From contig JAPLXS010000006.1 in NCBI GenBank assembly GCA_026395965.1, positions 233,165-297,164 on the forward strand: a stretch of 64,000 nucleotides of DNA, read 5' to 3'. A program made the translations under genes and the position numbers. The stretch is from Candidatus Nomurabacteria bacterium (lineage in GTDB: Bacteria > Patescibacteriota > Minisyncoccia > Phycocordibacterales > UBA9973). The notes below the pieces were generated by a model. The model did not search any database. It was not told the DNA's origin and was given only the letters and a program-made list of their open reading frames with translations. This document shows, one piece after another, positions 8,828-58,916 of the stretch (position 1 is its first letter; every line of letters starts with the position of its first letter).

Positions 8828-10192
8828 TTATTTAAACATTATTCGAATCTTTTCAATTTCTTGTAATAATGACGGGTCGGTTTTTAGATCAGATTTTATT
8901 TTCAGGTGAGAGTGAATTACTGTTGTATGATCTCTATCCCCCAATTTTTGACCTATCAATGGATATGAGATATTGAAATCTTCACGGAGTAAATACATTG
9001 CGACTTGTCGGGCTCTAACTATTTCCTTTCTTCTTGTTTTTTCGTATATAACTTCTTCGGCTAAACCATAATAATCAGAAACAATTTTAACAATATCTTT
9101 AATAGCAACAGTCTTTTTGGGTCTAATGTTATTTTTTATAAGCATTTTAACCTCAGCTATTGTTAGGGATCTGTTTTTTAATTGAGACTGGCAAATAACA
9201 GTATTTAAACTACCCTCAAGCTCTCTTATATTCCCCTCGAGTGACTCTGCTAAAGAAGCAACTATTTCTGGTTCTATAATACAGTTTGTGGATTCAAATT
9301 TTGCTTTTATAATAGCAACTCTTGATTCGTAATCAGGCTCAACTATTTGTACTGTCATACCAGAAGCAAATCTAGACTGTAGTCTCTCTTCTAACCCTTG
9401 GATAAAATTGGGATGTTTATCTGAAGAAAATATTATCTGCTTGTTACTCTCGTATAAAGTATTAAAAAGATGAAATAACTCTTCTTGAGTCTTATCTTTA
9501 CCAGAAATAAATTGAATATCGTCCATAATGATAACATCATATTTTCTATATTTTTCTTTAAAAGAGTTTGGGTTTTTGTTTTGAATTGAGTTTATGTAAT
9601 CGATTGTAAATCTCTCTAGGCTGACATAATAAATCTTTTTTAAAGGGTAATTTATCTTTATTGTGTTGCCTATTGCCTGAATCATATGTGTTTTTCCTAA
9701 TCCTGTGCCACCATATACAAAAAACGGGTTATAGTTTTGCCCAGGGTTCGATATTATTGCTTGAGATACAGCATATGCCAGCTCATTGAATGGTCCAACT
9801 ATAAAAGAATTGAAATTATATTTTGGGTTTAAATTATCGTCTTTATTTACATATAAATCGTTGAGTGGAAGTTCTTTGTTTATATTTATAGGAGTTTTTG
9901 GGGTAGCTTTTTCTTCGTTCTTAGTTTCAGCGTCGTTTTTGGAATCTTGCTTGTGTATATAGTATTCAACAGCACGAATACTCTCTTCGTTGCTAATAAG
10001 GGTTTTTAAAATAAGTTTATGAAACTTGTTATATAGCCAATCTTTAACAAATTCATTTGGAACCCCAACATGAATAACACCACTATCCTCTTTGATTATA
10101 TAGGTATTTTTAAACCAAGTAGTAAAATTTGCCTTTGAAATACCTAATTCAATTTCAGATAGACATTTATTCCAGAGTTCTTTTGTTTCCAT
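8828..10192 (-). CDS. dnaA: Chromosomal replication initiator DnaA
   Basis: Walker A GGTGLGKTHM, DnaA signature helix-turn-helix VARQVAMYLLRE at C-terminus. Confidence 0.95.
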   Translation of the reverse strand: METKELWNKCLSEIELGISKANFTTWFKNTYIIKEDSGVIHVGVPNEFVKDWLYNKFHKLILKTLISNEESIRAVEYYIHKQDSKNDAETKNEEKATPKTPININKELPLNDLYVNKDDNLNPKYNFNSFIVGPFNELAYAVSQAIISNPGQNYNPFFVYGGTGLGKTHMIQAIGNTIKINYPLKKIYYVSLERFTIDYINSIQNKNPNSFKEKYRKYDVIIMDDIQFISGKDKTQEELFHLFNTLYESNKQIIFSSDKHPNFIQGLEERLQSRFASGMTVQIVEPDYESRVAIIKAKFESTNCIIEPEIVASLAESLEGNIRELEGSLNTVICQSQLKNRSLTIAEVKMLIKNNIRPKKTVAIKDIVKIVSDYYGLAEEVIYEKTRRKEIVRARQVAMYLLREDFNISYPLIGQKLGDRDHTTVIHSHLKIKSDLKTDPSLLQEIEKIRIMFK

Positions 10193-10310
10193 CCCGTTAG
10201 AGATAGTCCCCCAAAGGTGGGACGTATCATATTGATTATTATTAATTATTTATACAGTTAGTAATTATACAAACCACCATTAGAATATAACGAACATATC
10301 TCTAACGGGA
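10192..10310 (-). other. Inverted-repeat leader element, site 1: TCCCGTTAGAGATA ... TATCTCTAACGGGA, 3' arm abutting the dnaA ATG
   Basis: 14-bp perfect IR separated by about 90 bp; same architecture at 18395-18672 and 42583-42703 with covarying outer positions. Confidence 0.6.
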
Positions 10311-10383
10311 TCCATAAGGACCATTATACATTGTTTTTTAATTACCCAACAATAAAATATCTTAATTAACATGTTGATATCAT

Positions 10384-10907: not shown

Positions 10908-11114
10908 ATGGGTAAATCAATAATTTGGCTTATAAACATATACCAAAAAACACCCTTAAAATCACACTCATCGTGTGTTTTTTTACCAACTTGTTCTGAA
11001 TACACCAAACAATCAATTGTAAAATATGGAGCTTTTAAAGGGGTTTTACGAGGTATTATAAGGATATTTCGTTGCCATCCTTGGCAGAAAAATAGATATG
11101 ACCCGGTAAGATAG
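10908..11114 (+). CDS. yidD: Membrane protein insertion efficiency factor YidD
   Basis: 68 aa, motif CxFxPTCSEY...CHPW; synteny rnpA-yidD-yidC. Confidence 0.85.
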   Translation: MGKSIIWLINIYQKTPLKSHSSCVFLPTCSEYTKQSIVKYGAFKGVLRGIIRIFRCHPWQKNRYDPVR

Positions 11115-11240
11115 TTAATAATTAGGAATTAAGAATTACTAGTACCCAATAGGTCATTCTACTGAATGAGGCGTTTTGCTAAATCTGGAATTAAAAACCC
11201 CAATTAACCAAAATTCTTAATTCCTAATTTTTAATTATTT
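11115..11240. repeat. Inverted pair of heptamer arrays (11115-11140 forward, 11211-11240 reverse-complement) flanking a 70 bp core
   Basis: ttaataattaggaattaagaattact ... aaattcttaattcctaatttttaattattt. Confidence 0.6.
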
Positions 11241-11262
11241 TTTTTTATGATACAATAGGCTG

Positions 11263-12009: not shown

Positions 12010-12477
12010 ATGTATAAAGATAAAATAAAGGAGGCAGTTGAAAGTATATTTAAACATACAGCTTGTACTATTACAAAGTGTGATTTTTCAGAAGAGAGTG
12101 GAATGCTTTGGTGTATGATAGAAACACCAGATTCAAACTTTATGATAGGTAGAGATGGGGAAACATTACGCTCACTCAACCATATAATTCAAAAGATTGT
12201 AGAAAAAGATACAATAAAAACAGAAGAAAAAGGACCAAGTATATTTATCGATATAAACGGTTATCAAAAAAAGCGATTTGAGAATTTAAAGAACATAGCT
12301 CACATGATGGCAGAGAGAGCCCGTTATTTTAAAAGCAATATAGAGATAGATCCAATGCCCGCATTTGAAAGAAGAATAGTACACATGTTCTTGGAAGGCG
12401 CCAAAGATATCAAAACAGAGTCAGAGGGCTACGGACCTACGAGAAGAGTTGTTATAAAATACATAGAGAGTAATTAA
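12010..12477 (+). CDS. jag: Jag/KhpB RNA-binding protein (KH + R3H domains)
   Basis: R3H motif RRIVHMFLEG...GYGPTRRVVI; downstream of yidC. Confidence 0.8.
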   Translation: MYKDKIKEAVESIFKHTACTITKCDFSEESGMLWCMIETPDSNFMIGRDGETLRSLNHIIQKIVEKDTIKTEEKGPSIFIDINGYQKKRFENLKNIAHMMAERARYFKSNIEIDPMPAFERRIVHMFLEGAKDIKTESEGYGPTRRVVIKYIESN

Positions 12478-12634
12478 GAATTAATAATTACGAATTAGGA
12501 ATAAAAAATACCATGACAGTGTCATGGTATTTTTTATCTAGTATTATTTTTTTAATTTTTAATTATTGTTCTCTCCCCTATTCCAATTCCTAATTCCTAA
12601 TTCCTAATTCGTAATTATTAATTCTTAATTATTT
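12471..12634. repeat. Heptamer array (12471-12502), terminator hairpin (12503-12536), then inverted 8-unit heptamer array (12579-12634)
   Basis: taattaagaattaataattacgaattaggaata | aaaaaataccatgacagtgtcatggtatttttt | tattccaattcctaattcctaattcctaattcgtaattattaattcttaattattt; stop codons of jag and of the 503 aa gene lie inside the arrays. Confidence 0.7.
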
Positions 12635-14136
12635 AACCCCAACCCCCACAATGTTGAATCTTTTTTATTTGTAAAGAATAATGTTTTTTCTTGTTTGTCT
12701 AAAAATAAATTAGTTCCGTCTACTGGAGTTTCTGAAGTTGAATTAGCTATTGTTTCAGAATCTCCAGTTGTAGAATTTATTTTTATAAAAAAATCATCAA
12801 AAGAAACCAATCCTTGATACCAAGAGTCAGGATACTGATTTCCATTAATAACATTTGGAACACTACAGTAAATGGTTATATTGTCTATACTCCATACACA
12901 TTTGTCTGACAAACCATATCTATCTAGTTCTTTTGTAGTGTGTTTTTTAATATCAAAAATTGATAGTTTGGGGCCACTAGATGTAGATGTGCTAAACAAA
13001 ACAAGAGAACCATTGTGGTTTACTAAAGTGGTGAGCCCAGGTACTCCCCCAAAAACCTTTGTAGTAGTTTTAGTTGTTGTATTTAAAACAAAGATAGTGC
13101 CATTTGCAGTATAAGATGGTTTTGTTGTTAGATATATTTTTTGATTGTTATCCCATTGTGATAGCCATTCTGTAAAAGGAGAATTAAAAACTATATCTTT
13201 TTTTGTGTTTCCAAATGTTCCGACGACACCAGATGCACCGTTGTTGTTTTCTGTTATATAGAAAAATTTAGTTTTATCGATAGAAGTGCTAAAATCAGAA
13301 ATATTTTGAGGTAAAAATTCTCCAGACGGAGCACCAAGCGAAGCCATAAAACTATTTATAGATTTATCTTCTGAGAGATATCTGTAAACAAAAGTATTAC
13401 CTGTATTATCAAAAAAAGTTTCATAAATACTTGGAATTGTAGAATTTGAAATCTTCTCTTTGTTTTTTGTATCTAAAAACATTTTATATATGTGGCCGTT
13501 CATCCTCTCTACGTATCTTATAGAAGGAGCTATCTCTGTAGTTCTTATTGGTGTTGTTGCCCCACCTTGTGCTATTTTTGTAAAATATGGAGCTGTAAAA
13601 GTATCTATTTTTCCTGTAACTCCCAAGTTGTTTAATTTTTGGAAAGATTTTATTGCATCTACTGTTTTTTTATCTAAAACCCCAGTTGTTGCTAGTTGTG
13701 GTTTTAGAGAAAGTGTAGTATTTAGAAATTTTTGAATTTCAATTCTACCCGCTTTTGTATCAGGAGATATTACTACCCTAGCTGGCTCAGGAGCCTGTAC
13801 TACTTGCGTATTTGGATTAACTGCTATTGGTCTTATATCGTCCAAAAAGGTGGCACCAGCAACAGAAAAGTCTGTTATTTGGTAGAACTTATTGACTGGT
13901 GTTGTAGATGTTCCTTGGTCTTGATTTTGAACTTCAGTTGATGTTTCATTGTTTGTAATAGGTGTTGTTGCAACCTGGCTACCATTACCAAAAGGGTTAA
14001 AACTTTGATACCAAGATGATTGGGTGTTTGTAGTACTAACACTAGGATTCTTGCTAGACCAAAAGTAAAAACCAAGGATAATTATCCCTACTATTATAAA
14101 TGTTGTTATAAAAATGATTTTTGTTTTTTGTGGCAT
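12625..14136 (-). CDS. Membrane-anchored secreted protein with peptidoglycan-binding domain and beta-rich C-terminal region
   Basis: N-terminal TM, T/S/Q-rich linker, PG_binding_1-like LATTGVLDKKTVDAIKSFQKLNNLGVTGKIDTFTAPYF. Confidence 0.55.
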   Translation of the reverse strand: MPQKTKIIFITTFIIVGIIILGFYFWSSKNPSVSTTNTQSSWYQSFNPFGNGSQVATTPITNNETSTEVQNQDQGTSTTPVNKFYQITDFSVAGATFLDDIRPIAVNPNTQVVQAPEPARVVISPDTKAGRIEIQKFLNTTLSLKPQLATTGVLDKKTVDAIKSFQKLNNLGVTGKIDTFTAPYFTKIAQGGATTPIRTTEIAPSIRYVERMNGHIYKMFLDTKNKEKISNSTIPSIYETFFDNTGNTFVYRYLSEDKSINSFMASLGAPSGEFLPQNISDFSTSIDKTKFFYITENNNGASGVVGTFGNTKKDIVFNSPFTEWLSQWDNNQKIYLTTKPSYTANGTIFVLNTTTKTTTKVFGGVPGLTTLVNHNGSLVLFSTSTSSGPKLSIFDIKKHTTKELDRYGLSDKCVWSIDNITIYCSVPNVINGNQYPDSWYQGLVSFDDFFIKINSTTGDSETIANSTSETPVDGTNLFLDKQEKTLFFTNKKDSTLWGLGLNN

Positions 14137-16565: not shown

Positions 16566-18395
16566 TTATGAATTTGTTGAAAGTAAGTCTTTCTTGGCTT
16601 TTTGAATAGCAAGTATTTGTGATGGATCTGAAGTAATGATCTGGTCCTCTGTATAAGAAGCTATTGTTTTAATAGCAACGTGTTTTAGCCCAGCAAAGAA
16701 TATACCCTCGCCTACATTTGCTTCAAGTAAGAGGTATTTTTCTTCATCTGTGAGGTTGAAAGTCTTTTGTAATACATCTATGGTTGCTGGGGATTGTTTC
16801 AAGAGTAGTTGAATAGATGAGTTTGTAACAATAGGTATACCATAAGGACTTTTCATAAAATCTCCTACGTCCTGAGTGATAGTAGCAAGACCTAGATAGT
16901 ATTTACGTCCTCTTTTTGCAATAGAATACAAGAAAGAAGCAGTATCTTCTGATTTCATCATCCACCAAGCCTCATCAACTACGAGCAATCTCTTTTTGAT
17001 ATTTTTACGGATAGAATTCCAAATATAGTGAGTGATTATATACATTGCGACAGGCTTAAGCTCATCCTCCATGTCTCTAACAGAAAAAACAATAAATTTT
17101 CTATTTATATCTACGTTTGAAGGCTGGTTTAAGAATGAAGCCCAAGAACCATGAGTATATTTTACCAATCTCTGCATAAGAGACTCACTTCCCTCCATAC
17201 CAGAAAGAACTACTTCAAAGTCTGAGAGCATTGGAGGTTCAATATTCATGAAATCTGAATTGGTTGTTATGTCTTTCAAGGCATAAGTTTCAGTAATAGC
17301 AGAGTCAACAAGTGAATCTTCTTCTGGTGTAAGTCCACCAAGCATTATTCTAAATAGACCAACAAGATTTATGGTATTTGCACGGAGTACATCAGCACCA
17401 GTTTCATCTCCTGTAGGTATTGGTAAGTCAAAAGGGTTTATGTGGTGGTCTGAAGAAAGAGCAATGTTGAAATATCTACCTCCCACTGCTTCTGCTAGGT
17501 ATTCGTATTCGCGTTCAGGGTCTATAACAATAACTTCTGTATCAAACATCAAAGTACGAATAATCTCTAGTTTTGTGGCATAAGATTTACCTGCACCAGC
17601 TGTAGCAAAGGTAATAGAGTTGTAGTTTGGTAAAGAAAATCTATCAAAAAGTATAAGACTAGAGTTATGACGGTTTACCCCATATAGTATTCCCCTATCT
17701 TCTGTTAGGTCAAAGGATACAAATGGGAAAATACTTGAAAGAGGTTCAGTATTTAGTTTTTGGTGTATACCTAAAATATCTGTACCTAATGGTATGACAC
17801 TTTTGAAGCCCTCATTTTGTTGAAATAATGCAGGTTTAAGATAAATAAGCTTTGAATCTAGAAGAGATTTTATCTCGTTCTCAATTTTAAATAAATCATT
17901 GTCATTCTCGGCATATACAGTGATATAAAGCCCGACATCAAACATTTTCTCTTGAGCTTGCATTAGATTGTTTCTCAAATCCTCTAGGTCTCTGTATGCT
18001 GTATCTAGCATCGGGTCACGAACGAGACCTTTTGATTCACGAATAGAAATCTGACTTTGAACCTCAGCTACTTTTTTCTGGAAAGATCTCATTATTTCTG
18101 CTGTATCTATAGGATGAATAAAAATAGAAATATCATAAACCTTGTCCAGGTTTATGATTGGAGAAAACCAGTTGTCACTGAGGTATCTTGGGTATGATAT
18201 TACGAAAAATGTTCTAGCTATTTTATCTCCAAGATTTAAAGATTTTGGTGTTATTTGAAGAGCAGAAGGAGCAATAATATCTTGTAGCTCAAGAGTTGCA
18301 GCTTTGTAGATTTCACTAGGCAAAACAGGCATAACCATACTTCGGTTATTTTTAAGATCGTCCCCTTTTCCAAATAATGATGAAAATATTGACAT
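16566..18395 (-). CDS. VirB4/PrgJ-type type IV secretion ATPase, central + ATPase portion (apparent C-terminal fragment of a split gene)
   Basis: VirB4 mid-region ARTFFVISYPRYL, Walker A ATAGAGKSYATK, Walker B RLLVVDEAWWMM. Confidence 0.8.
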   Translation of the reverse strand: MSIFSSLFGKGDDLKNNRSMVMPVLPSEIYKAATLELQDIIAPSALQITPKSLNLGDKIARTFFVISYPRYLSDNWFSPIINLDKVYDISIFIHPIDTAEIMRSFQKKVAEVQSQISIRESKGLVRDPMLDTAYRDLEDLRNNLMQAQEKMFDVGLYITVYAENDNDLFKIENEIKSLLDSKLIYLKPALFQQNEGFKSVIPLGTDILGIHQKLNTEPLSSIFPFVSFDLTEDRGILYGVNRHNSSLILFDRFSLPNYNSITFATAGAGKSYATKLEIIRTLMFDTEVIVIDPEREYEYLAEAVGGRYFNIALSSDHHINPFDLPIPTGDETGADVLRANTINLVGLFRIMLGGLTPEEDSLVDSAITETYALKDITTNSDFMNIEPPMLSDFEVVLSGMEGSESLMQRLVKYTHGSWASFLNQPSNVDINRKFIVFSVRDMEDELKPVAMYIITHYIWNSIRKNIKKRLLVVDEAWWMMKSEDTASFLYSIAKRGRKYYLGLATITQDVGDFMKSPYGIPIVTNSSIQLLLKQSPATIDVLQKTFNLTDEEKYLLLEANVGEGIFFAGLKHVAIKTIASYTEDQIITSDPSQILAIQKAKKDLLSTNS

Positions 18396-18672
18396 CCCGT
18401 TAGAGATAGGAAGCGCCTAATCTGTTTTTAAGATAACGCTTACCCATTCCCGATTTTAAATATAATTCTCTCGACCGAGCTTTTTTCTCGCTCTTACATG
18501 CTTCATAATAAATAATTTCAAACGGACCTCTTCCTTTTGTATAAGTAGACAAACCATTGTTGTGTTGCAGAAGGCGTTTCCGTAAATCTTTTGTACTTCC
18601 TGTGTATATATTACCATCTTTTTTACTTTTTAATATATAAGTGTAATAAAACATATATAATCTCTAACGGGA
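18395..18672 (-). other. Inverted-repeat leader element, site 2 (TCCCGTTAGAGAT ... ATCTCTAACGGGA) with GIY-YIG gene nested between the arms
   Basis: 13-bp perfect IR; GIY-YIG ATG 5 nt inside the upstream arm, its TAA stop inside the downstream arm, which directly abuts the VirB4 ATPase ORF ATG. Confidence 0.6.
18400..18654 (-). CDS. Small GIY-YIG nuclease family protein (UPF0213/YhbQ-like)
   Basis: FYYTYILKSKKDGNIYTGSTKDLRKRLLQHNNG...YTKGRGPFEIIYYE, 84 aa. Confidence 0.8.
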   Translation of the reverse strand: MFYYTYILKSKKDGNIYTGSTKDLRKRLLQHNNGLSTYTKGRGPFEIIYYEACKSEKKARSRELYLKSGMGKRYLKNRLGASYL

Positions 18673-18683
18673 CCAGTATAATA

Positions 18684-19340: not shown

Positions 19341-19446
19341 AAATAATTACGAATTAATAATTACGAATTTATAACTAATAACATTGTACCATATTACAAA
19401 TAATTAAGAATTATTAACCTTACTCCCTAATTCCTAATTATTAATT
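19341..19446. repeat. Heptamer arrays (19341-19370 and 19401-19419 forward; 19425-19446 reverse) in the 5' leader of the VirB4-N ORF
   Basis: aaataattacgaattaataattacgaattt ... taattaagaattattaacc ... ccctaattcctaattattaattt. Confidence 0.6.
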
Positions 19447-19455
19447 TATAATTAT

Positions 19456-19875
19456 TTACTCCTTCTCTCCTCTATTACTATCCTGCACATCTAAACTCCA
19501 CGAAAGGTCTTTTAGTTTATTTGATGTAACCATAGGAACAACAGATACTAGTTGTGGAGTAGAAGATTCTTCTTTTTCTTTAATTTCTGGTTTTACAAGT
19601 CTTTGTTTCCATATATATAATTTACCAGAAATAAAATAATTAAAGGCAGCTTCAAGGTAATAGATAAATGGCTTTTCATTTATCTTGTAAAATACCAAAA
19701 GAAATGACAATACACCTATGGGTATTATTAAAAATATACCAATCCACAAAGGAAATAATTTATAAACAACAAAGGCCATACCAGCCCCACCAACAATATA
19801 TATAAATTGGCGAAAAGTAAAAGGGCCAAATAATTTGTCCTCGACGTCAATAAATTGTGGTACTTTGAATTGCAT
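19456..19875 (-). CDS. PrgI/VirB3-like small two-TM type IV secretion protein
   Basis: 139 aa, pattern DVEDKLFGPFTFRQFIYIVGGAGMAFVVY + second TM, located upstream of VirB4 as in PrgI-PrgJ. Confidence 0.55.
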   Translation of the reverse strand: MQFKVPQFIDVEDKLFGPFTFRQFIYIVGGAGMAFVVYKLFPLWIGIFLIIPIGVLSFLLVFYKINEKPFIYYLEAAFNYFISGKLYIWKQRLVKPEIKEKEESSTPQLVSVVPMVTSNKLKDLSWSLDVQDSNRGEKE

Positions 19876-19883
19876 ATAATGGG

Positions 19884-19915
19884 TAATTACGAATTAGGAA
19901 TTAATAATTACGAAT
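19884..19915 (+). repeat. Heptamer array (forward) left of the four-helix-bundle gene
   Basis: taattacgaattaggaattaataattacgaat. Confidence 0.6.
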
Positions 19916-19921
19916 GAACGA

Positions 19922-20272
19922 TTAAGATCTGGATGTTTTTATAATCGAACCAAGTATTTTTAATAATTCTTCACATTCACACATAAGTGTACCAGATTGT
20001 TCCTTGTTTAGAAAACCACTATCTGATAAAAGCTGTAACCAATAAAGTGTTTCCCTTGCCTCTTTGTATGAAATACTCATCTTTGAGATGAAATCATTTT
20101 TTGATTGTGCCCCTATTGCCTCCTCTATATTTGCCCCAATAGATGTTCCGGATCGAATTAATTGTTTTGAAAGAATAAATTCTTTTTTGTCTTTAGTTAA
20201 ATCCTGATATATTTTTATTATATTAAGACTGAAGGCATAACTCTTACTTCTTACGATATTGTCCGACTTCAT
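19922..20272 (-). CDS. Four-helix-bundle protein (TIGR02436-like; family commonly found in 23S rRNA intervening sequences)
   Basis: QLIRSGTSIGANIEEA...KMSISYKEARETLYWLQLL signature, 116 aa. Confidence 0.75.
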   Translation of the reverse strand: MKSDNIVRSKSYAFSLNIIKIYQDLTKDKKEFILSKQLIRSGTSIGANIEEAIGAQSKNDFISKMSISYKEARETLYWLQLLSDSGFLNKEQSGTLMCECEELLKILGSIIKTSRS

Positions 20273-20285
20273 TTTTTTTGATTTA

Positions 20286-20318
20286 AATTCTTAATTCCTA
20301 ATTATTAATTCTTAATTT
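20286..20318 (-). repeat. Heptamer array (reverse orientation) right of the four-helix-bundle gene
   Basis: aattcttaattcctaattattaattcttaatttt, inverted relative to 19884-19915. Confidence 0.6.
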
Positions 20319-42076: not shown

Positions 42077-42583
42077 TTAGTATATTAAATATTTACGGTA
42101 ATTGTTTGATAGATCTAGAAAATCATCTGCTTGTTCTTTGAGTTTCATAGACGCACTTTTTCCAAATGATACAACTTCTACTTGAACCCCAGATGTACTC
42201 TGTAAATATTCGACAAGTGGTACAAAATCTCCATCACCAGCAACCAATACGACAGCATCTAGCTTGGGCGCCATCTTCATGGCATCAACTGCTAGTCCAA
42301 CATCCCAGTCACCCTTTTTTGCTCCACCAGCAAAAATTTGTAATTCTTTTGTTCTGGTTTCTATTCCAAGTTTTGTTAATGCTTCAAAAAAATTTTTCTC
42401 TTCCCCTCCTTCACTTGTGATAACATATGCAATTGCACGAACTAGTTTACGACCAGCAACTGCATCTTTTAAAACTGCACCAAAGTTTACTTTTCTTTTA
42501 TATAAATTTTTAGCAGAATGATATAGATTTGATGTATCTATAAAAACTCCTACTCTTTGTTCTTTGTGTTTTATTACGCTCAT
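42077..42583 (-). CDS. NYN-domain (LabA-like PIN-fold) protein
   Basis: VGVFIDTSNL...GDWDVGLAVDAM...LVAGDGDFVPLV. Confidence 0.7.
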   Translation of the reverse strand: MSVIKHKEQRVGVFIDTSNLYHSAKNLYKRKVNFGAVLKDAVAGRKLVRAIAYVITSEGGEEKNFFEALTKLGIETRTKELQIFAGGAKKGDWDVGLAVDAMKMAPKLDAVVLVAGDGDFVPLVEYLQSTSGVQVEVVSFGKSASMKLKEQADDFLDLSNNYRKYLIY

Positions 42584-42703
42584 CCCGTTAGAAGCAGGTC
42601 GTGGTCTTTAGAAAACTCACATACCTACTTAATTAAAATTATTATATTATATTATATAAACCCGTTCTTTTTATAGAAACCATGACCGCGGCTTCTAACG
42701 GGA
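42583..42703 (-). other. Inverted-repeat leader element, site 3: TCCCGTTAGAAGC ... GCTTCTAACGGGA, 3' arm abutting the NYN gene ATG
   Basis: 13-bp IR with conserved CCCGTTAG/CTAACGGG core and covarying outer bases relative to sites 1 and 2. Confidence 0.6.
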
Positions 42704-42815
42704 CTCATATATTTTAATTGTATTAAAAATTTACATCGACCAATGTTGTTTAAACAACATTTATATTATATACCCTTAATTATGTATTTTATAGTCTATC
42801 TATTTATAAGATAAC

Positions 42816-49948: not shown

Positions 49949-50133
49949 ATGTGGCTTGGATAAGGGGTAGTCTAGACTACCGTTTCGGGTACTTTTCAAT
50001 TTTGATCAACATTAAACTATGAAAGCATTATATTTAATAATAATCTTGATTACAATAAACAGAAAAGCCTTTCGACTGTCGCCTCTCGGCGCGATTCTCT
50101 AATCGCCTACGCATATATAGCAGTCTGTTTGCT

Positions 50134-50191
50134 ATCCCGCACCATATTAAAAAAACACCTTGATAGGTGTTTTTTTAATATGGTGCGGGAT
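50134..50191. terminator. 26-bp-arm perfect palindrome incorporating the 3' acceptor end of the adjacent tRNA
   Basis: atcccgcaccatattaaaaaaacacc ttgata ggtgtttttttaatatggtgcgggat. Confidence 0.6.
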
Positions 50192-50254
50192 AAGGGAGTC
50201 GAACCCTTCACCACAGTTTGGAAAACTGTTATTTTACCGATAAACTAATCCCGC
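50181..50254 (-). tRNA. tRNA-Gly (anticodon UCC), CCA encoded
   Basis: Acceptor GCGGGAT, anticodon stem ACAGT/ACTGT with loop TTTCCAA, T-arm GGTTCGACTCC, 3' CACCA. Confidence 0.75.
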
Positions 50255-50543: not shown

Positions 50544-50629
50544 TTTTGTATTTTTTCAAAGCAAAGCTTCTCAAAAATATACAAAAGCCTTTCGATTCCC
50601 GGAAGATTCAACCTCAAGGTTGAATCTCA

Positions 50630-50690
50630 CCCCGACAATAAGTAAAAAGACCACTAATTTATTTAGTGGTCTTTTTACTTATTGTCGGGG
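50630..50690. terminator. 28-bp-arm perfect palindrome incorporating the tRNA-Pro 3' end
   Basis: ccccgacaataagtaaaaagaccactaa ttta ttagtggtctttttacttattgtcgggg. Confidence 0.6.
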
Positions 50691-50755
50691 TGCCGGGAAT
50701 CGAACCCGGCCCTTATGTTCCCAAAACATAGATACTACCGATATACTACACCCCG
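50685..50755 (-). tRNA. tRNA-Pro (anticodon UGG)
   Basis: Acceptor CGGGGTG/CACCCCG, anticodon stem TATGT/ACATA with loop TTTGGGA, T-arm GGGTTCGATTCCC. Confidence 0.75.
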
Positions 50756-56373: not shown

Positions 56374-56411
56374 CCTAACTCACTTTACGCTATAGCGTAA
56401 AGTGAGTTAGG
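56374..56411. repeat. 38-bp perfect palindrome CCTAACTCAC-TTTACGCTATAGCGTAAA-GTGAGTTAGG, 3' of the wHTH/Cas2-like gene
   Basis: Shares the 16-bp core TTACGCTATAGCGTAA with the palindrome at 56916-56949. Confidence 0.7.
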
Positions 56412-56420
56412 AAAAATTAT

Positions 56421-56897
56421 TTACTTAAATCCTTTTTCTAATTTGAATGTTTTTACTAGATCTTTTAAGCCTATCTCTTTTATGTACTCCATAAATTCTT
56501 TTGGAAGAGGGGAAGGTCCAACCCATACACTTCTTTGAATCATAATAAAACCAAATTTGATCAATGCCCTGCGGAACCAGTCACGCTCATTCTTTTTATC
56601 TTCTGGTATATCATAAAGAAGAAGCAAATTTTTTGGACCATTGTTTTCTATTGGTTCAAATGTTTTTAATTGATATTTTTTATTTTTAGATAAAAATTCT
56701 TTCCCTTTTTTATTCAAAATATAATATTCATTTTTTTTATCTAAATACCCGTTATTGTATAGTTCAGCAAATTTGTTTCTAACGGATTGTTTTTTGTAAT
56801 TTTGTAGAGTAGGAAGAAAAAACGCACTCATAGGAATACCTTTATAATAAAATTTAGGAGTATTTAATATTTCTAATATATCATTTTTTATAGACAT
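56421..56897 (-). CDS. Hypothetical small protein, probable N-terminal wHTH plus C-terminal Cas2/VapD-fold-like domain
   Basis: LLLYDIPEDKKNERDWFRRALIKFGFIMIQRSVWVG resembles the Cas2 core YDI...R...L...G.R.Q.SV; no CRISPR or cas neighbours. Confidence 0.35.
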   Translation of the reverse strand: MSIKNDILEILNTPKFYYKGIPMSAFFLPTLQNYKKQSVRNKFAELYNNGYLDKKNEYYILNKKGKEFLSKNKKYQLKTFEPIENNGPKNLLLLYDIPEDKKNERDWFRRALIKFGFIMIQRSVWVGPSPLPKEFMEYIKEIGLKDLVKTFKLEKGFK

Positions 56898-56915
56898 AAT
56901 TATATTGTATCATTC

Positions 56916-56949
56916 TAACCCGCATTACGCTATAGCGTAATGCGGGTTA
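56916..56949. repeat. 34-bp perfect palindrome TAACCCGCA-TTACGCTATAGCGTAA-TGCGGGTTA, 5' of the same gene
   Basis: Same core as 56374-56411; outer arm covaries. Confidence 0.7.
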
Positions 56950-57734: not shown

Positions 57735-58916
57735 TTACGCCTCTGTACCATCATCTACTATCCCATCATCTATATTACTATCAGCTTCCTTATTTTCTTC
57801 TTCGTTTGTTTTTGAGTCAGCACTTTTGATATCTATTCTCCATCCTGTTAGTTTCGCAGCAAGACGAACATTTTGTCCTCCTTTTCCGATAGCTAGAGAC
57901 AATTGATCAGTTGCTACTTCTACTGTTGCTTTGTGTTCAGCATCATTTACTTCTATGCCTAGTACGTTGGCTGGTGATATAGAACTTGATATATATGTAG
58001 CTGCATCAGGAGACCAAGGAATAATATCTATTTTTTCTCCATTTAATTCACTCATAACAGTAGTTACGCGAACTCCTTTTTGTCCTACACATGAACCCAC
58101 TGGATCTACGTGCTCATCATTTGAAAATACAGCAATCTTTGAACGGCTTCCAGCTTCACGAGCAATAGATTTTATTTCTACTACTCCTCCTGCTATTTCG
58201 GGAGCTTCCATAGCAAAAAGTCCTTCTATAAGTTCTGGATGCGTACGAGAAAGCTTTAGATTTACTCCGCGTGGAGTTTCTTCTACTGAATACAAATATG
58301 CACGGATTCTCTCGCCACGACGATAGAACTCACCAGGGATTTGTTCTTCAGGCAAGATAATACCTGTAGCACGATTGAAGTCGATATATACGATTCCTCT
58401 TTCTACCTTAGAAACGAATCCGTTTATTATTTCTCCTTCCTTTGTTCCGTATTCGTCTATGATAGCACTACGCTCTGCTTCACGGATTTTTTGTATGATA
58501 ACTTGCTTTGCAGTTTGTGCAGCAATACGTCCATAATCATCTTTGTTTTCAAGAGGGAATATAAGTTCGTCTCCTGTTTTAACGTCATTTTTGATTTTTT
58601 TAGCATCTTCTAATAGGATGTGATGTTCTTCGTTGAAGCGAACTCTCTCATCATCTTCGGAAATCTCTTCTTCCTCTTCGTCTTCAGTTGTCATTCTGAC
58701 AAGAGTATCATCTACAGCTATTTTGATTTGATAGAATTCCATTAAACCAGTATCTACATCTATCTTTGCTCTTATAATTTGACCCTTTTTGCCGTAATCT
58801 TTTTTGTATGCAGCAGCAAGAGCTTGCTCTATAGCATCTATTATTTTTTCTCGAGGAATTTTTCTTTCTACCTCAAGCTGCTCAAGAGCAGATTTCATTG
58901 TTTTTAAATCCAACAT
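57735..58916 (-). CDS. nusA: Transcription termination/antitermination factor NusA
   Basis: N-terminal domain, S1, two KH motifs (IGKGGQNVRLAAKLTGWRIDI). Confidence 0.9.
   Translation of the reverse strand: MLDLKTMKSALEQLEVERKIPREKIIDAIEQALAAAYKKDYGKKGQIIRAKIDVDTGLMEFYQIKIAVDDTLVRMTTEDEEEEEISEDDERVRFNEEHHILLEDAKKIKNDVKTGDELIFPLENKDDYGRIAAQTAKQVIIQKIREAERSAIIDEYGTKEGEIINGFVSKVERGIVYIDFNRATGIILPEEQIPGEFYRRGERIRAYLYSVEETPRGVNLKLSRTHPELIEGLFAMEAPEIAGGVVEIKSIAREAGSRSKIAVFSNDEHVDPVGSCVGQKGVRVTTVMSELNGEKIDIIPWSPDAATYISSSISPANVLGIEVNDAEHKATVEVATDQLSLAIGKGGQNVRLAAKLTGWRIDIKSADSKTNEEENKEADSNIDDGIVDDGTEA

Follow-up and report, generated by a model that had tools for sequence, protein, structure and literature searches.

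Three inverted-repeat loci in the window (the whole 64,000-nucleotide stretch of Candidatus Nomurabacteria DNA that was analysed) are probably one full copy and two gene-less remnants of a single mobile element family. The core of the repeats, CCCGTTAG, occurs six times in the window (both strands) against 0.37 expected, and none of 100 shuffles reached six. These occurrences form three inverted pairs; in every one of them the perfect repeat reaches 13 bp (T-CCCGTTAGA-GAT or T-CCCGTTAGA-AGC), and the 3' arm ends on the A that opens the ATG of a minus-strand gene. Our counts bear out an earlier sequence-only reading of the window, which had described three such pairs abutting minus-strand start codons, with a GIY-YIG gene between the arms of the second and short gene-less spacers at the first and third. 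What it had named the VirB4 ATPase ORF does encode a P-loop protein, but the Pfam match is to the TraG P-loop domain rather than to VirB4 specifically. It had also remarked on genes lacking Shine-Dalgarno sites, and indeed GGAG, GAGG or AGGA within 13 nt upstream was found at 0 of the 52 ORF starts of the window. The loci and their genes are as follows.

10193-10200/10302-10309, 18396-18403/18664-18671 and 42584-42591/42695-42702: inverted pairs of CCCGTTAG
10192-10310, minus strand: site 1, short gene-less copy of 119 bp with the terminal T/A pair, at dnaA +2 to +5; 10192, where it ends, supplies the A of the dnaA start codon ATG
8828-10192, minus strand: dnaA (Pfam Bac_DnaA, DnaA_N, Bac_DnaA_C)
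18395-18672, minus strand: site 2, full-length copy of 278 bp with the terminal pair; it ends at 18395, on the A that opens the start codon (ATG) of the TraG-type P-loop ATPase gene
16566-18395, minus strand: gene for the 609-aa P-loop protein (Pfam TraG P-loop domain)
42583-42703, minus strand: site 3, short gene-less copy of 121 bp, at NYN gene +2 to +5; 42583, where it ends, supplies the A of the NYN gene start codon ATG
42077-42583, minus strand: NYN-domain gene

The sequence-only reading had named the ends of a small mobile cassette as its second choice and had suggested a comparison of empty with occupied sites in relatives. That comparison gave empty sites at both dnaA and the NYN gene and, together with target duplications, upheld the cassette. 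At dnaA the relevant features are these.

10298-10310, minus strand: 5' arm of the terminal repeat P1, TCCCGTTAGAGAT
10192-10204, minus strand: 3' arm of P1, ATCTCTAACGGGA
10206-10223, minus strand: local P2 hairpin, GTCCCAC-CTTT-GGGGGAC, one linker T from the 3' arm
10311-10314, minus strand: upstream target duplication TGGA, preceded by A10315
10188-10191, minus strand: downstream target duplication TGGA, which is dnaA bases 2-5
10323-10330, minus strand: dnaA promoter, extended -10 box TGTATAAT, with 7 nt between it and the original ATG

Five DnaA orthologues (L203-L207, 88-91% identical) have empty sites that read TGTATAAT-7 nt-ATGGAAACAAAAG, or likewise TGTATAAT-N7-ATGGAAACA, and the TGTATAAT box is conserved in these relatives. 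The window locus is this empty-site sequence plus the element ([T-CCCG…CGGG-A]) and a second TGGA, and the original dnaA ATG survives at the upstream TGGA, with A10315 preceding it. Specifically, the element is absent from 5 of the 6 dnaA relatives examined; the sixth (93% DnaA identity) has a decayed copy of the insertion with both arms mutated, and dnaA is intact in that lineage. dnaA of the source lineage is thereby indicated to be leaderless and to tolerate a 119-nt structured insert at its 5' end. The NYN locus has the same organisation.

42704-42707, minus strand: upstream target duplication TGAG, preceded by A42708
42579-42582, minus strand: downstream target duplication TGAG
42677-42687, minus strand: P2 5' half, GGTCATGGTTT, 3 nt (CGC) after the 5' arm in the subfamily of site 3
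42597-42607, minus strand: P2 3' half, AGACCACGACC, followed by linker T42596 and the 3' arm

Five orthologous NYN loci (L212-L214, L216 and L218; 88-96% protein identity) read ATGAGT… without the element, and a relative at 99% identity (L211) has the same element copy, so that 5 of the 6 loci examined are empty. The occupied site in the window differs from the empty relatives only by [T-CCCG…CGGG-A] and the TGAG duplication. Site 2, which carries the gene, has no recognisable target duplication (left flank ACTGG, right flank TGTC), and the sister genome GCA_038249055.1 has the same copy at the identical locus with the left flank unchanged. Its internal features are listed here.

18400-18654, minus strand: GIY-YIG nuclease ORF of 84 aa (Pfam GIY-YIG, E = 1.8e-18), with its TAA stop inside the 3' arm
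18571-18581, minus strand: P2 5' half, GGAAACGCCTT, codons for R-K-R-L
18409-18419, minus strand: P2 3' half, TAGGCGCTTCC, followed by linker T18408 and the 3' arm at 18395-18407

Further copies, for which a genome search had been proposed, turned out to be numerous. A protein search recovered GIY-YIG homologues with both arms at matching positions in 72 of 80 loci, and in those 72 the GIY-YIG gene was the sole ORF between the arms. A DNA pattern scan matched at least 120 gene-less copies of ~115 bp in CPR bacteria, Omnitrophota, Planctomycetota and other phyla. The same kind of match was found only 3 times in 2.9 million viral contigs, on which ground a phage vehicle was rejected. The autonomous form is 272-283 bp long, with a single gene for a nuclease of 83-94 residues, and the non-autonomous copies (~100-130 bp) lack the C-terminal two-thirds of that gene. 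Both end in the 13-bp inverted repeat Y-CCCGTTAGA-RRY … RYY-TCTAACGGG-R, which we named P1, with a terminal pair that varies (T/A or C/G). Short copies retain P1 and both halves of P2, joined by a loop of 3-6 nt, and the length difference between long and short forms matches the ~165-nt P2 loop of the former; the short copies derive from the full element by internal deletion of that loop.

Most copies in the family have a target duplication. Of 125 short copies, 88 lie between 4-nt direct repeats, compared with 11.3 for shuffled partners, and across 210 copies the duplication is 4 nt long in 135, 3 nt in 11 and 5 nt in 5. A clear duplication is missing from roughly one copy in four, site 2 of the window among them, and ~10 copies share the left flank AYYTG(G). 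Insertion is at 5'-A|TGRA; a logo built from 103 target sites has A at 92%, T at 98%, G at 87%, R at 90% and R at 99%, and tandem copies occur at the regenerated target. The element inserts at the ATG of a gene and rebuilds an ATG or GTG from its own last base and the duplicated TG. Of 111 oriented copies, 81 have an ORF of 60 codons or more beginning at their 3' end and 4 are reversed. Copies at gene starts amount to 73%, only ~1.8-fold over the 41% expected from an ATGRR target combined with loss of gene-disrupting insertions (estimated from window counts). The insertions lie upstream of more than 100 unrelated genes, and some are found within operons, where stop and start overlap as ATGA, or at TAA stop codons. 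Host genes with no relation to one another form the flanks, and no second gene accompanies the element.

Two ideas on target choice were set aside. Targeting of the open promoter complex, suggested by the many sites at leaderless starts, is weakened by the insertions at ATGA overlaps and TAA stops, and ATGRR with selection already predicts ~41%. A guide-like link between the arm triplet and the duplication was rejected, since by eye the triplet does not track the duplicated sequence; closely related full copies bear different duplications.

Both P1 and P2 behave as paired stems. The covariation of the outer arm (GAT/ATC versus AGC/GCT) noticed in the window is real and generalises to 125 unique short copies, where positions 0, 10, 11 and 12 are Watson-Crick in 94-98%, compared with 44-51% for shuffled partners; at arm position 13, pairing is down to 41%. 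These positions were unconstrained by the scan, which fixed arm positions 1-9 only, and the invariance of the core among short copies is partly imposed by that search pattern. The earlier suggestion that pairing between the arms is under selection holds. In a stem alignment of 55 full-length copies (A1), 98.6% of cells pair and nine pairs are changed on both sides; 0 of 500 shuffles reached the observed pairing, double-sided changes or covariation score, and slid-register controls gave at most 49% pairing. P2 sits one nucleotide inside the 3' arm. In full copies it links codons ~25-28 with the last 11 nt before the linker T, and in 39 short copies it is a local hairpin of the same position and form as at site 1. 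Folded as single-stranded DNA, site 1 has a free energy of -19.9 kcal/mol (z = -5.1) and site 3 of -18.7 kcal/mol (z = -3.8).

There was no excess of G·U in either stem. Mismatches in oriented copies were G·T 7 versus A·C 8 in P1 and 6 versus 10 in P2, and A1 contained 10 G·U cells versus 18 non-standard cells. Compensatory change without wobble pairs suggests that the stems most likely act at the DNA level, as an intrastrand hairpin or cruciform.

The protein encoded by the full copies has Pfam GIY-YIG as its only real domain match (T5orf172 fell below the cut-off), and NCBIfam returned only sub-threshold GIY-YIG-type matches (the 'group I intron endonuclease' model scored 26 bits, its cut-off being 56). 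A small self-splicing intron, which on excision would give back the uninterrupted mRNA, was considered and rejected: the element is too small, no intron model matches, its ends are not constant (T/A or C/G) and a duplication at the DNA level is what insertion would leave. By sequence, the nearest solved structures are PDB 1zg2 (UPF0213 protein BH0048, E = 1.8e-9) and 1ywl (E = 9e-4), which places the 84-aa nuclease in the UPF0213/YhbQ/Slx1 branch. More than 1000 homologues were found at E <= 1e-5, the best 120 of which share 81-100% identity. The nuclease is under strong purifying selection (dN/dS = 0.10 at dS 0.85). Y4, Y6, Y17, R27, H31, E63 and N77, which we take to be the GIY-YIG catalytic set, are conserved in at least 95% of 55 copies. 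With 83-94 residues, it is a bare catalytic core with no obvious DNA-binding domain.

We suggest that this GIY-YIG protein would be the mobilising enzyme of the element and the P1 and P2 stems its DNA substrate. Our fuller proposal, to which we give somewhat less than even credence as a joint claim, is a new class of prokaryotic DNA transposon in which a minimal Slx1/YhbQ-like GIY-YIG 'transposase' would read its own folded DNA (P1, P2). The same claim has the element target the A|TGRA start codons of leaderless or overlapping genes, take start and stop codons from the duplicated target, ride host promoters and pass ribosomes on to the host gene, and it covers a spread over CPR bacteria, Omnitrophota, Planctomycetota and others. 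In bacteria, no GIY-YIG protein is known to function as a transposase.

An unlikely competitor is that the element is mobile and is moved by a recombinase or transposase encoded by the host or elsewhere, with the GIY-YIG protein as cargo or as a homing or maintenance factor; in a homing role, the nuclease would cut empty sites, and repair would then copy the element back. This would be consistent with a protein consisting of the catalytic core only. Characterised GIY-YIG enzymes are known to leave 1-2-nt 3' overhangs or nicks, and the 4-nt duplication suggests a 4-nt stagger unlike that geometry. There is also a precedent in IS200/IS605, where the accessory nuclease TnpB is described as serving maintenance rather than transposition. 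The features of the element itself argue the other way: the nuclease gene is the sole ORF within the arms, P2 is embedded in its coding sequence and covaries with it, purifying selection on it is strong, no second gene travels along among the unrelated flanks, and copies in so many phyla would need a universally available helper.

The way the element lives with its host can be put as follows. Insertion occurs in one orientation at A|TGRA, usually with a 4-nt (TGRA) duplication, and the terminal A or G together with TG rebuilds the host start codon. At a leaderless target gene, the element would become the 5' end of the host transcript. The reading frame of the nuclease opens at its own ATG or, in some subfamilies, at the captured host ATG; it closes either with the TAA of the 3' arm or with a TGA that shares bases with the rebuilt host start codon. 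Translation of the host gene could then follow by termination-reinitiation, a coupling that would keep host genes expressed.

Several observations touch on this scheme. A simple -35/-10 scanner did not report extended -10 boxes, and the TAnnnT spacing was measured directly instead: the motif clusters 6-7 nt ahead of the captured ATG, where 59 of 134 sites have it (21 of 134 have it at a control offset), so that many target genes look leaderless as judged from promoter motifs. The stop codon of the 86- and 94-residue forms of the nuclease is the TGA in an ATGA shared with the rebuilt host start codon. Sixteen of 56 full copies are open from the captured ATG into the nuclease (MNPVRD…), and 6 of those 16 are without an internal ATG. 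The captured-ATG frame is open in 23 of 63 short copies, whereas each of the other two frames is open in 7 and shuffles give 6.6 ± 2.4. A translational side-effect of the element is likely; this reading frame spans the whole element far more often than expected by chance. Part of the open-frame excess among short copies may be a legacy of fused-type ancestors.

The sequence-only reading had preferred an mRNA leader for translational control, i.e., a host cis-regulatory RNA hairpin hiding the ribosome landing site of dnaA, the ATPase gene and the NYN gene. This we now consider very improbable, even though the arms do pair with the A of AUG as the last paired base, most copies are co-oriented with the downstream gene, and the captured-ATG frame is open above chance, so that for some copies at least it matters that the element can be translated. 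The empty orthologous dnaA and NYN loci largely refute it. Furthermore, the arms decay in one lineage in which dnaA stays intact, the downstream genes are more than 100 and unrelated, with stop codons also among the targets, the stems show target duplications around them and no G·U excess within them, and no Rfam family matches. The Rfam search of the whole window at gathering score returned tRNAs only, and at E <= 10 site 1 gave noise, the best sub-threshold hit (E = 0.21) being to an unrelated model. Least credible of all is an inverton, in which the repeats would be recombination sites flipping an AT-rich, TATAAT-containing spacer to switch the downstream gene: there are indeed 13-bp inverted repeats around ~100 bp immediately upstream of genes, and TATAAT-like boxes in the spacers of sites 1 and 3, but no invertase or recombinase lies in or beside the element, the target duplications and empty sites point to insertion rather than a resident switch, the orientation bias is 81 to 4, and P2 and its coding relation to the GIY-YIG gene would have no role in such a switch.

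Returning to the element as a GIY-YIG transposon, a GIY-YIG core that moves it would be a new enzyme class for bacterial transposition, and at ~275 bp it would be among the smallest autonomous mobile elements known to us. Searches of Rfam and the literature, arm sequences included, gave no description of it; literature coverage was incomplete, and a prior description is possible. The element illustrates how selfish DNA can live in compact genomes free of Shine-Dalgarno sites, i.e., by landing on a start codon, rebuilding it and sharing promoter and ribosomes. It also explains recurrent mis-annotation in CPR genomes, where for example DnaA and NYN calls are given N-terminal extensions and 84-residue proteins are labelled 'excinuclease ABC subunit C'. 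Copies can serve as markers for strain-level population genetics and for cross-phylum gene flow in groundwater communities, and one study counts a GIY-YIG domain protein among the genes passed from Patescibacteria to other bacteria (PMC12455944). Moreover, the nuclease and its DNA, as a compact pair with sequence and structure specificity, would make a candidate tool.

Among known systems, insertion sequences and their MITEs (e.g., Correia/NEMIS of Neisseria) resemble the element in having terminal inverted repeats, a short target duplication, empty and occupied alleles, and autonomous copies alongside derivatives made by internal deletion. They also share the many dispersed gene-adjacent copies and the co-transcription with the neighbouring gene that lets repeats pair in mRNA. 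The element differs from them in that its sole protein is a GIY-YIG nuclease core and not a transposase of the classes recognised in bacterial insertion sequences (DDE, DEDD, HUH, serine, tyrosine), its stems covary as folded nucleic acid, its target is the start codon, and start and stop codons are borrowed from the duplicated target. A classification of transposable elements lists GIY-YIG only among homing endonucleases and in eukaryotic Penelope-like elements (PMC5718144), and the term is absent from a 2024 review of prokaryotic MITEs (PMC10969869).

IS200/IS605 elements and their palindrome-associated derivatives are likewise very small, insert in an oriented manner by a short specific sequence and have gene-less derivatives with structured ends; a dependence on DNA hairpins would be common to both if our reading of the stems holds. 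They move by single-strand 'peel and paste' with a Y1 HUH transposase and have neither terminal inverted repeat nor target duplication, whereas our element is bounded by a 13-bp terminal repeat, duplicates mostly 4 nt of its target and encodes a GIY-YIG protein, with no HUH domain. GIY-YIG homing endonuclease genes (phage T4 Seg, I-TevI) are also selfish DNA with a nuclease as its one gene, and the catalytic motif residues are conserved. However, homing enzymes have a separate DNA-binding domain, one cognate allele and no terminal repeats or duplications, in contrast to a bare core with copies at more than 100 unrelated genes and no group I intron by Rfam.

The structure-selective nucleases of the UPF0213/YhbQ/YazA/Slx1 branch are the sequence relatives of the element protein. 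As far as is known, UPF0213-branch proteins are encoded by single-copy cellular genes without flanking repeats, unlike the element gene, which lies within a repeat-bounded, multi-copy and horizontally spread unit. Slx1, described as the founder of a family with YhbQ and YazA among its members, cuts branched DNA (PMC7017083), an activity that would suit a hairpin or cruciform substrate. Finally, the 'polite' Tn7, which inserts at attTn7 downstream of glmS, also leaves its host gene intact by an unrelated mechanism: Tn7 owes its harmlessness to a dedicated target-selector protein, whereas the element would owe its own to duplication of start and stop codons and to termination-reinitiation.

Six occurrences of CCCGTTAG are present in the 64-kb window, compared with 0.37 expected by chance, and the inverted-repeat pairs abutting start codons that the sequence-only reading had described were confirmed at three sites:

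Site 1, inverted pair 10193-10200/10302-10309, minus strand, ahead of dnaA
Site 2, inverted pair 18396-18403/18664-18671, minus strand, ahead of an ORF for a 609-residue protein with a TraG-type P-loop domain
Site 3, inverted pair 42584-42591/42695-42702, minus strand, ahead of an ORF for a NYN-domain protein

Each locus reads T-CCCGTTAGA-(GAT/AGC) … (ATC/GCT)-TCTAACGGG-A on the minus strand and is followed by TG, so that pairing ends on the A of an ATG. The interior of site 2 is filled by an 84-residue GIY-YIG ORF with its TAA stop within the 3' arm. No additional paired copies were found in the window, with up to two mismatches allowed. Proteins identical to those of the window carry Candidatus Nomurabacteria names, a lineage of the candidate phyla radiation (CPR, equivalent to Patescibacteria).

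Other repeats in the window include an unrelated AT-rich intergenic family, found in both orientations between genes, with units such as AATTCCTAATTCGTAATTATTAATTCTTAATTA (11108-11247, 12451-12637, 19341-19457, 19892-19929, 20279-20317, and upstream of the gene at 57735-58916). A 158-residue ORF (56421-56897) is flanked by two 35-nt units (56376-56410 and 56915-56949), each a near-perfect palindrome (…CTTTACGCTATAGCGTAAAG…), and the tRNA-Gly and tRNA-Pro genes are directly abutted, and partly overlapped, by perfect hairpins (50133-50192 and 50628-50692; arms of 28 nt and 30 nt).

Comparison with relatives revealed both empty and occupied sites at dnaA and the NYN gene. The dnaA locus was compared across six close relatives. 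In five of them (DnaA 88-91% identical) it reads …AAAACAATGTATAAT-N7-ATGGAAACAAAAG… and has no element (in one of the five, GGTATAAT replaces TGTATAAT). The window reads …TGTATAAT-ggtcctt-ATGGA[TCCCG…119 bp…CGGGA]TGGAAACAAAAG; apart from the element and a repeated TGGA, it thus does not differ from the empty sites. In the remaining relative (93% identical) this insertion is present and its two arms have acquired mutations (ATGTATCCTATTAGAGAT … TATCAAGAACAAGGATGG), which indicates that the insertion is old enough to be common to both genomes and free to decay. At the NYN gene, five orthologue loci (88-96% identity) read ATGAGT… without the element and the window reads ATGAG[T…A]TGAG; the locus is occupied in a 99% relative, the sister genome GCA_038249055.1, where the site 2 copy is also present at the same locus. 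These observations, together with the target duplications and the arms bracketing a nuclease gene described below, bear out the mobile cassette that had been offered as an alternative, and the element is most likely a start-codon-targeting, hairpin-bounded mini-transposon with gene-less derivatives. We note that gene callers begin the DnaA and NYN proteins within the element, resulting in N-terminally extended database entries (locus L202, 153-1550, entry P0121, 465 aa; locus L211, 501-1043, entry P0243, 180 aa). Several further over-long DnaA entries (472-483 aa) may have the same miscalled-start cause.

The wider search for arm pairs suggested by the sequence-only reading, a pattern scan of one genome per species (CCCGTTAGA-N85-115-TCTAACGGG), returned at least 120 loci across many phyla. 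The matches listed include many CPR lineages, Omnitrophota and Planctomycetota, as well as genomes labelled Deltaproteobacteria, Elusimicrobia, Nitrospirae, Spirochaetia and others. An independent protein-based metagenome scan for relatives of the GIY-YIG ORF gave 80 loci, and the arms bracket the gene in 72 of these, with the 5' arm starting 12-25 nt ahead of the ATG and the 3' arm located at the stop codon. More than 1000 homologues of the protein were found at E <= 1e-5, the best 120 being 81-100% identical to the window protein; among 2.9 million viral contigs there were only three matches. The cross-phylum spread fits a groundwater study that predicted Patescibacteria as donors of repair-type genes, including a GIY-YIG domain protein, to other bacteria (PMC12455944). 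In a Spirochaetia MAG (QYPD01000002.1; locus L091, 432-538), the arms enclose a complete tRNA-Val(GAC) gene (446-519) with no nuclease remnants; this copy either carries the tRNA gene as cargo or was inserted around it.

The ends were defined from 125 unique short copies (~100-130 bp, gene-less), for which the search had fixed arm positions 1-9 only. Positions 0, 10, 11 and 12 were Watson-Crick paired in 98, 95, 94 and 94% of copies (44-51% with shuffled partners), and position 13 in 41%, so that the terminal stem, P1, spans 13 bp with four variable pairs that covary (position 0, T:A or C:G; positions 10-12, R, R, Y). The 4 nt beyond the terminal pair match on both sides in 88 of the 125 copies, compared with 11.3 for shuffled partners; of all 210 unique copies, 135 are flanked by a 4-nt repeat, 11 by one of 3 nt and 5 by one of 5 nt. 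Copies with a C:G terminal pair still show ATGAAC on the left and GTGAA… on the right. The duplication is therefore TGAA, and the new start codon begins with the last base of the element. The target reconstructed from 103 oriented sites is A (92%), T (98%), G (87%), A/G (71/19%), A/G (86/13%), with no conservation beyond these five positions. In a minority class with C:G ends, TAAA is duplicated, and in several of these TAA is the stop of a long upstream ORF. Some copies lie at ATGA stop/start overlaps, the left target copy retaining the TGA of the upstream gene and the right one the downstream ATG. Head-to-tail copies have only the regenerated target between them (tandem copies, including one nested in the 3' arm region of another, at L033, 7674-7895; L181, 1480-1869; L185, ~395-688; L157, 1139-1236, all loci of other genomes). 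Site 2 and about ten other copies (e.g., loci L048, L108, L137, L140 and L126) lack a target duplication and share the left flank AYYTG(G) directly before the element (18673-18677 at site 2); candidate explanations are native start codons other than ATG, duplications that are short, or rearrangement among copies.

Full-length copies (272-283 bp, with the nuclease gene) contain a second stem, P2: in 56/56, 11 nt at element position ~90 are complementary to the 11 nt before the linker T and 3' arm. The 5' half, GGAARCGNYTN, encodes R-K-R-L/F, and compensatory variants are many (e.g., GGAAACGACTT/AAGTCGTTTCC and GGAAGCGTTTC/GAAACGCTTCC). In an alignment of 55 full-length copies, P1 and P2 were 98.6% paired, with both-sided changes at nine pairs (95 cells); in none of 500 shuffles did the pairing, the double-sided changes or the covariation score reach the real value, and control partners slid by 1-3 columns paired at <=49%. 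The covariation between arms noted earlier, and with it selection on pairing, thus holds in both the 125 short and the 55 full-length copies. P2 is a local hairpin in 39 short copies (e.g., GGAAATC-TAAA-GATTTCC and GGTCGTC…GACGACC; at site 1, GTCCCAC-CTTT-GGGGGAC), and in a second short subfamily (n = 16, including site 3) its partner is CGCGGTC just after the 5' arm. This layout indicates that a short copy is a full element lacking the P2 loop (~165 nt); the loop corresponds to the C-terminal two-thirds of the nuclease gene, and its loss explains the ~115-bp length. The stretch from the 5' arm to P2 often retains faint traces of N-terminal codons.

The sequence-only reading had preferred an mRNA leader in which the hairpin occludes the ribosome landing site. 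A structure selected as RNA should tolerate G·U much better than A·C. The mismatches in oriented copies were near-symmetrical (G·T 7 vs. A·C 8 in P1; 6 vs. 10 in P2), and the formal count in the 55-copy alignment was 10 G·U against 18 non-standard cells. This symmetry, along with the empty sites and the arm decay beside an intact dnaA, speaks against the leader and favours selection for pairing within a DNA strand during mobility. Folded as single-stranded DNA, the window short copies gave z = -5.1 and -3.8 against shuffled controls.

Using a conserved CCT just within the 3' arm, 111 copies were oriented; an ORF of 60 codons or more adjoins the 3' end in 81 of these and the 5' end in 4. ATGRR sites in the window (510 within ORFs, 41 intergenic, 29 at gene starts) imply that an oriented, sequence-specific target plus loss of gene-disrupting insertions would already place ~41% of the surviving copies at start codons. 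The actual figure, 73%, exceeds this, though it is not of a different order, and on such counts promoter targeting would not need to be invoked.

With regard to translation, a Shine-Dalgarno-like motif <=13 nt upstream was found at 0/52 ORF starts in the window, in agreement with the lack of such sites reported earlier, and many starts have an extended -10 box (TGnTAnAAT) 6-8 nt ahead of the ATG. Leaderless or non-SD initiation therefore seems to predominate in the host genome. Upstream of the captured ATG (the original host start codon, left ahead of the element), TAnnnT peaks at a spacing of 6-7 nt and occurs within 5-9 nt at 59/134 sites (21/134 at a control offset). This spacing suggests that many targets are probably leaderless genes, in which the element would form the transcript's 5' end.

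The frame set by the captured ATG continues without a stop across the 5' arm (M-N/D/S-P-V-R-D/G…) and on into the nuclease in 16/56 full-length copies, of which six wholly lack an internal ATG. The nuclease ends either in …GASYL, with TAA inside the 3' arm 4 nt ahead of the host ATG, or in …KRFLSLTG, where the stop is the TGA of the duplicated target and overlaps the host ATG as ATGA; the fused 94-residue nuclease takes both start and stop codon from the duplicated target. Among short copies, the captured-ATG frame is open across the whole interior in 23/63 (7 and 7 in the other two sense frames; shuffles, 6.6 ± 2.4, maximum 16 in 500); of 65 scored, 16 have a captured-ATG ORF that terminates at the TAA of the arm and 8 have one that terminates at the overlapping TGA. 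Such frames suggest that, for a subset of short copies, there is a preference for termination-reinitiation at the host ATG, although open frames may be partly inherited from fused ancestors. The captured-ATG ORFs of the window short copies end early, at 11 and 18 codons, and translation of dnaA and the NYN gene must therefore begin in some other way. TATAAT-like boxes lie inside both of these short copies (interior 10298-10240 at site 1; 42650-42625 at site 3), the site 1 box, TGTATAAT, having the sequence of the native dnaA -10 box. A transcript could begin inside the element and would then lack the 5' arm.

The nearest solved structure to the nuclease is the UPF0213 protein BH0048 (1zg2, E = 1.8e-9). 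Y4, Y6, Y17, R27, H31, E63 and N77, which we take to be the catalytic residues of the GIY-YIG family, are >=95% conserved, an open frame of at least 80 residues is kept in 55/56 copies, and dN/dS is 0.10 at dS 0.85; the protein is thus functional and selected. We infer that it would cut the P1/P2 structure and the ATGRA target. Our confidence in this mechanism is only moderate, mainly because, to our knowledge, nothing in GIY-YIG biochemistry predicts a 4-nt stagger.

We found no prior description of the element in the literature, arm sequences included, although coverage was incomplete and an earlier description is possible. A classification of transposable elements places GIY-YIG among homing endonucleases and in eukaryotic Penelope-like elements only (PMC5718144), and the term is absent from a 2024 review of prokaryotic miniature elements (PMC10969869). 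Unlike a classical homing endonuclease gene, the element has no DNA-binding domain, single cognate site or intron. It resembles IS200/IS605 in its probable reliance on hairpins and its oriented, sequence-specific insertion but fails the defining features of that family (no terminal repeat, no duplication, an HUH enzyme). It is built like an insertion sequence that has miniature derivatives, yet its protein falls outside the known transposase classes of bacterial insertion sequences, and the probability that the element represents a new enzymatic class of bacterial transposon is considerable, though slightly below even.
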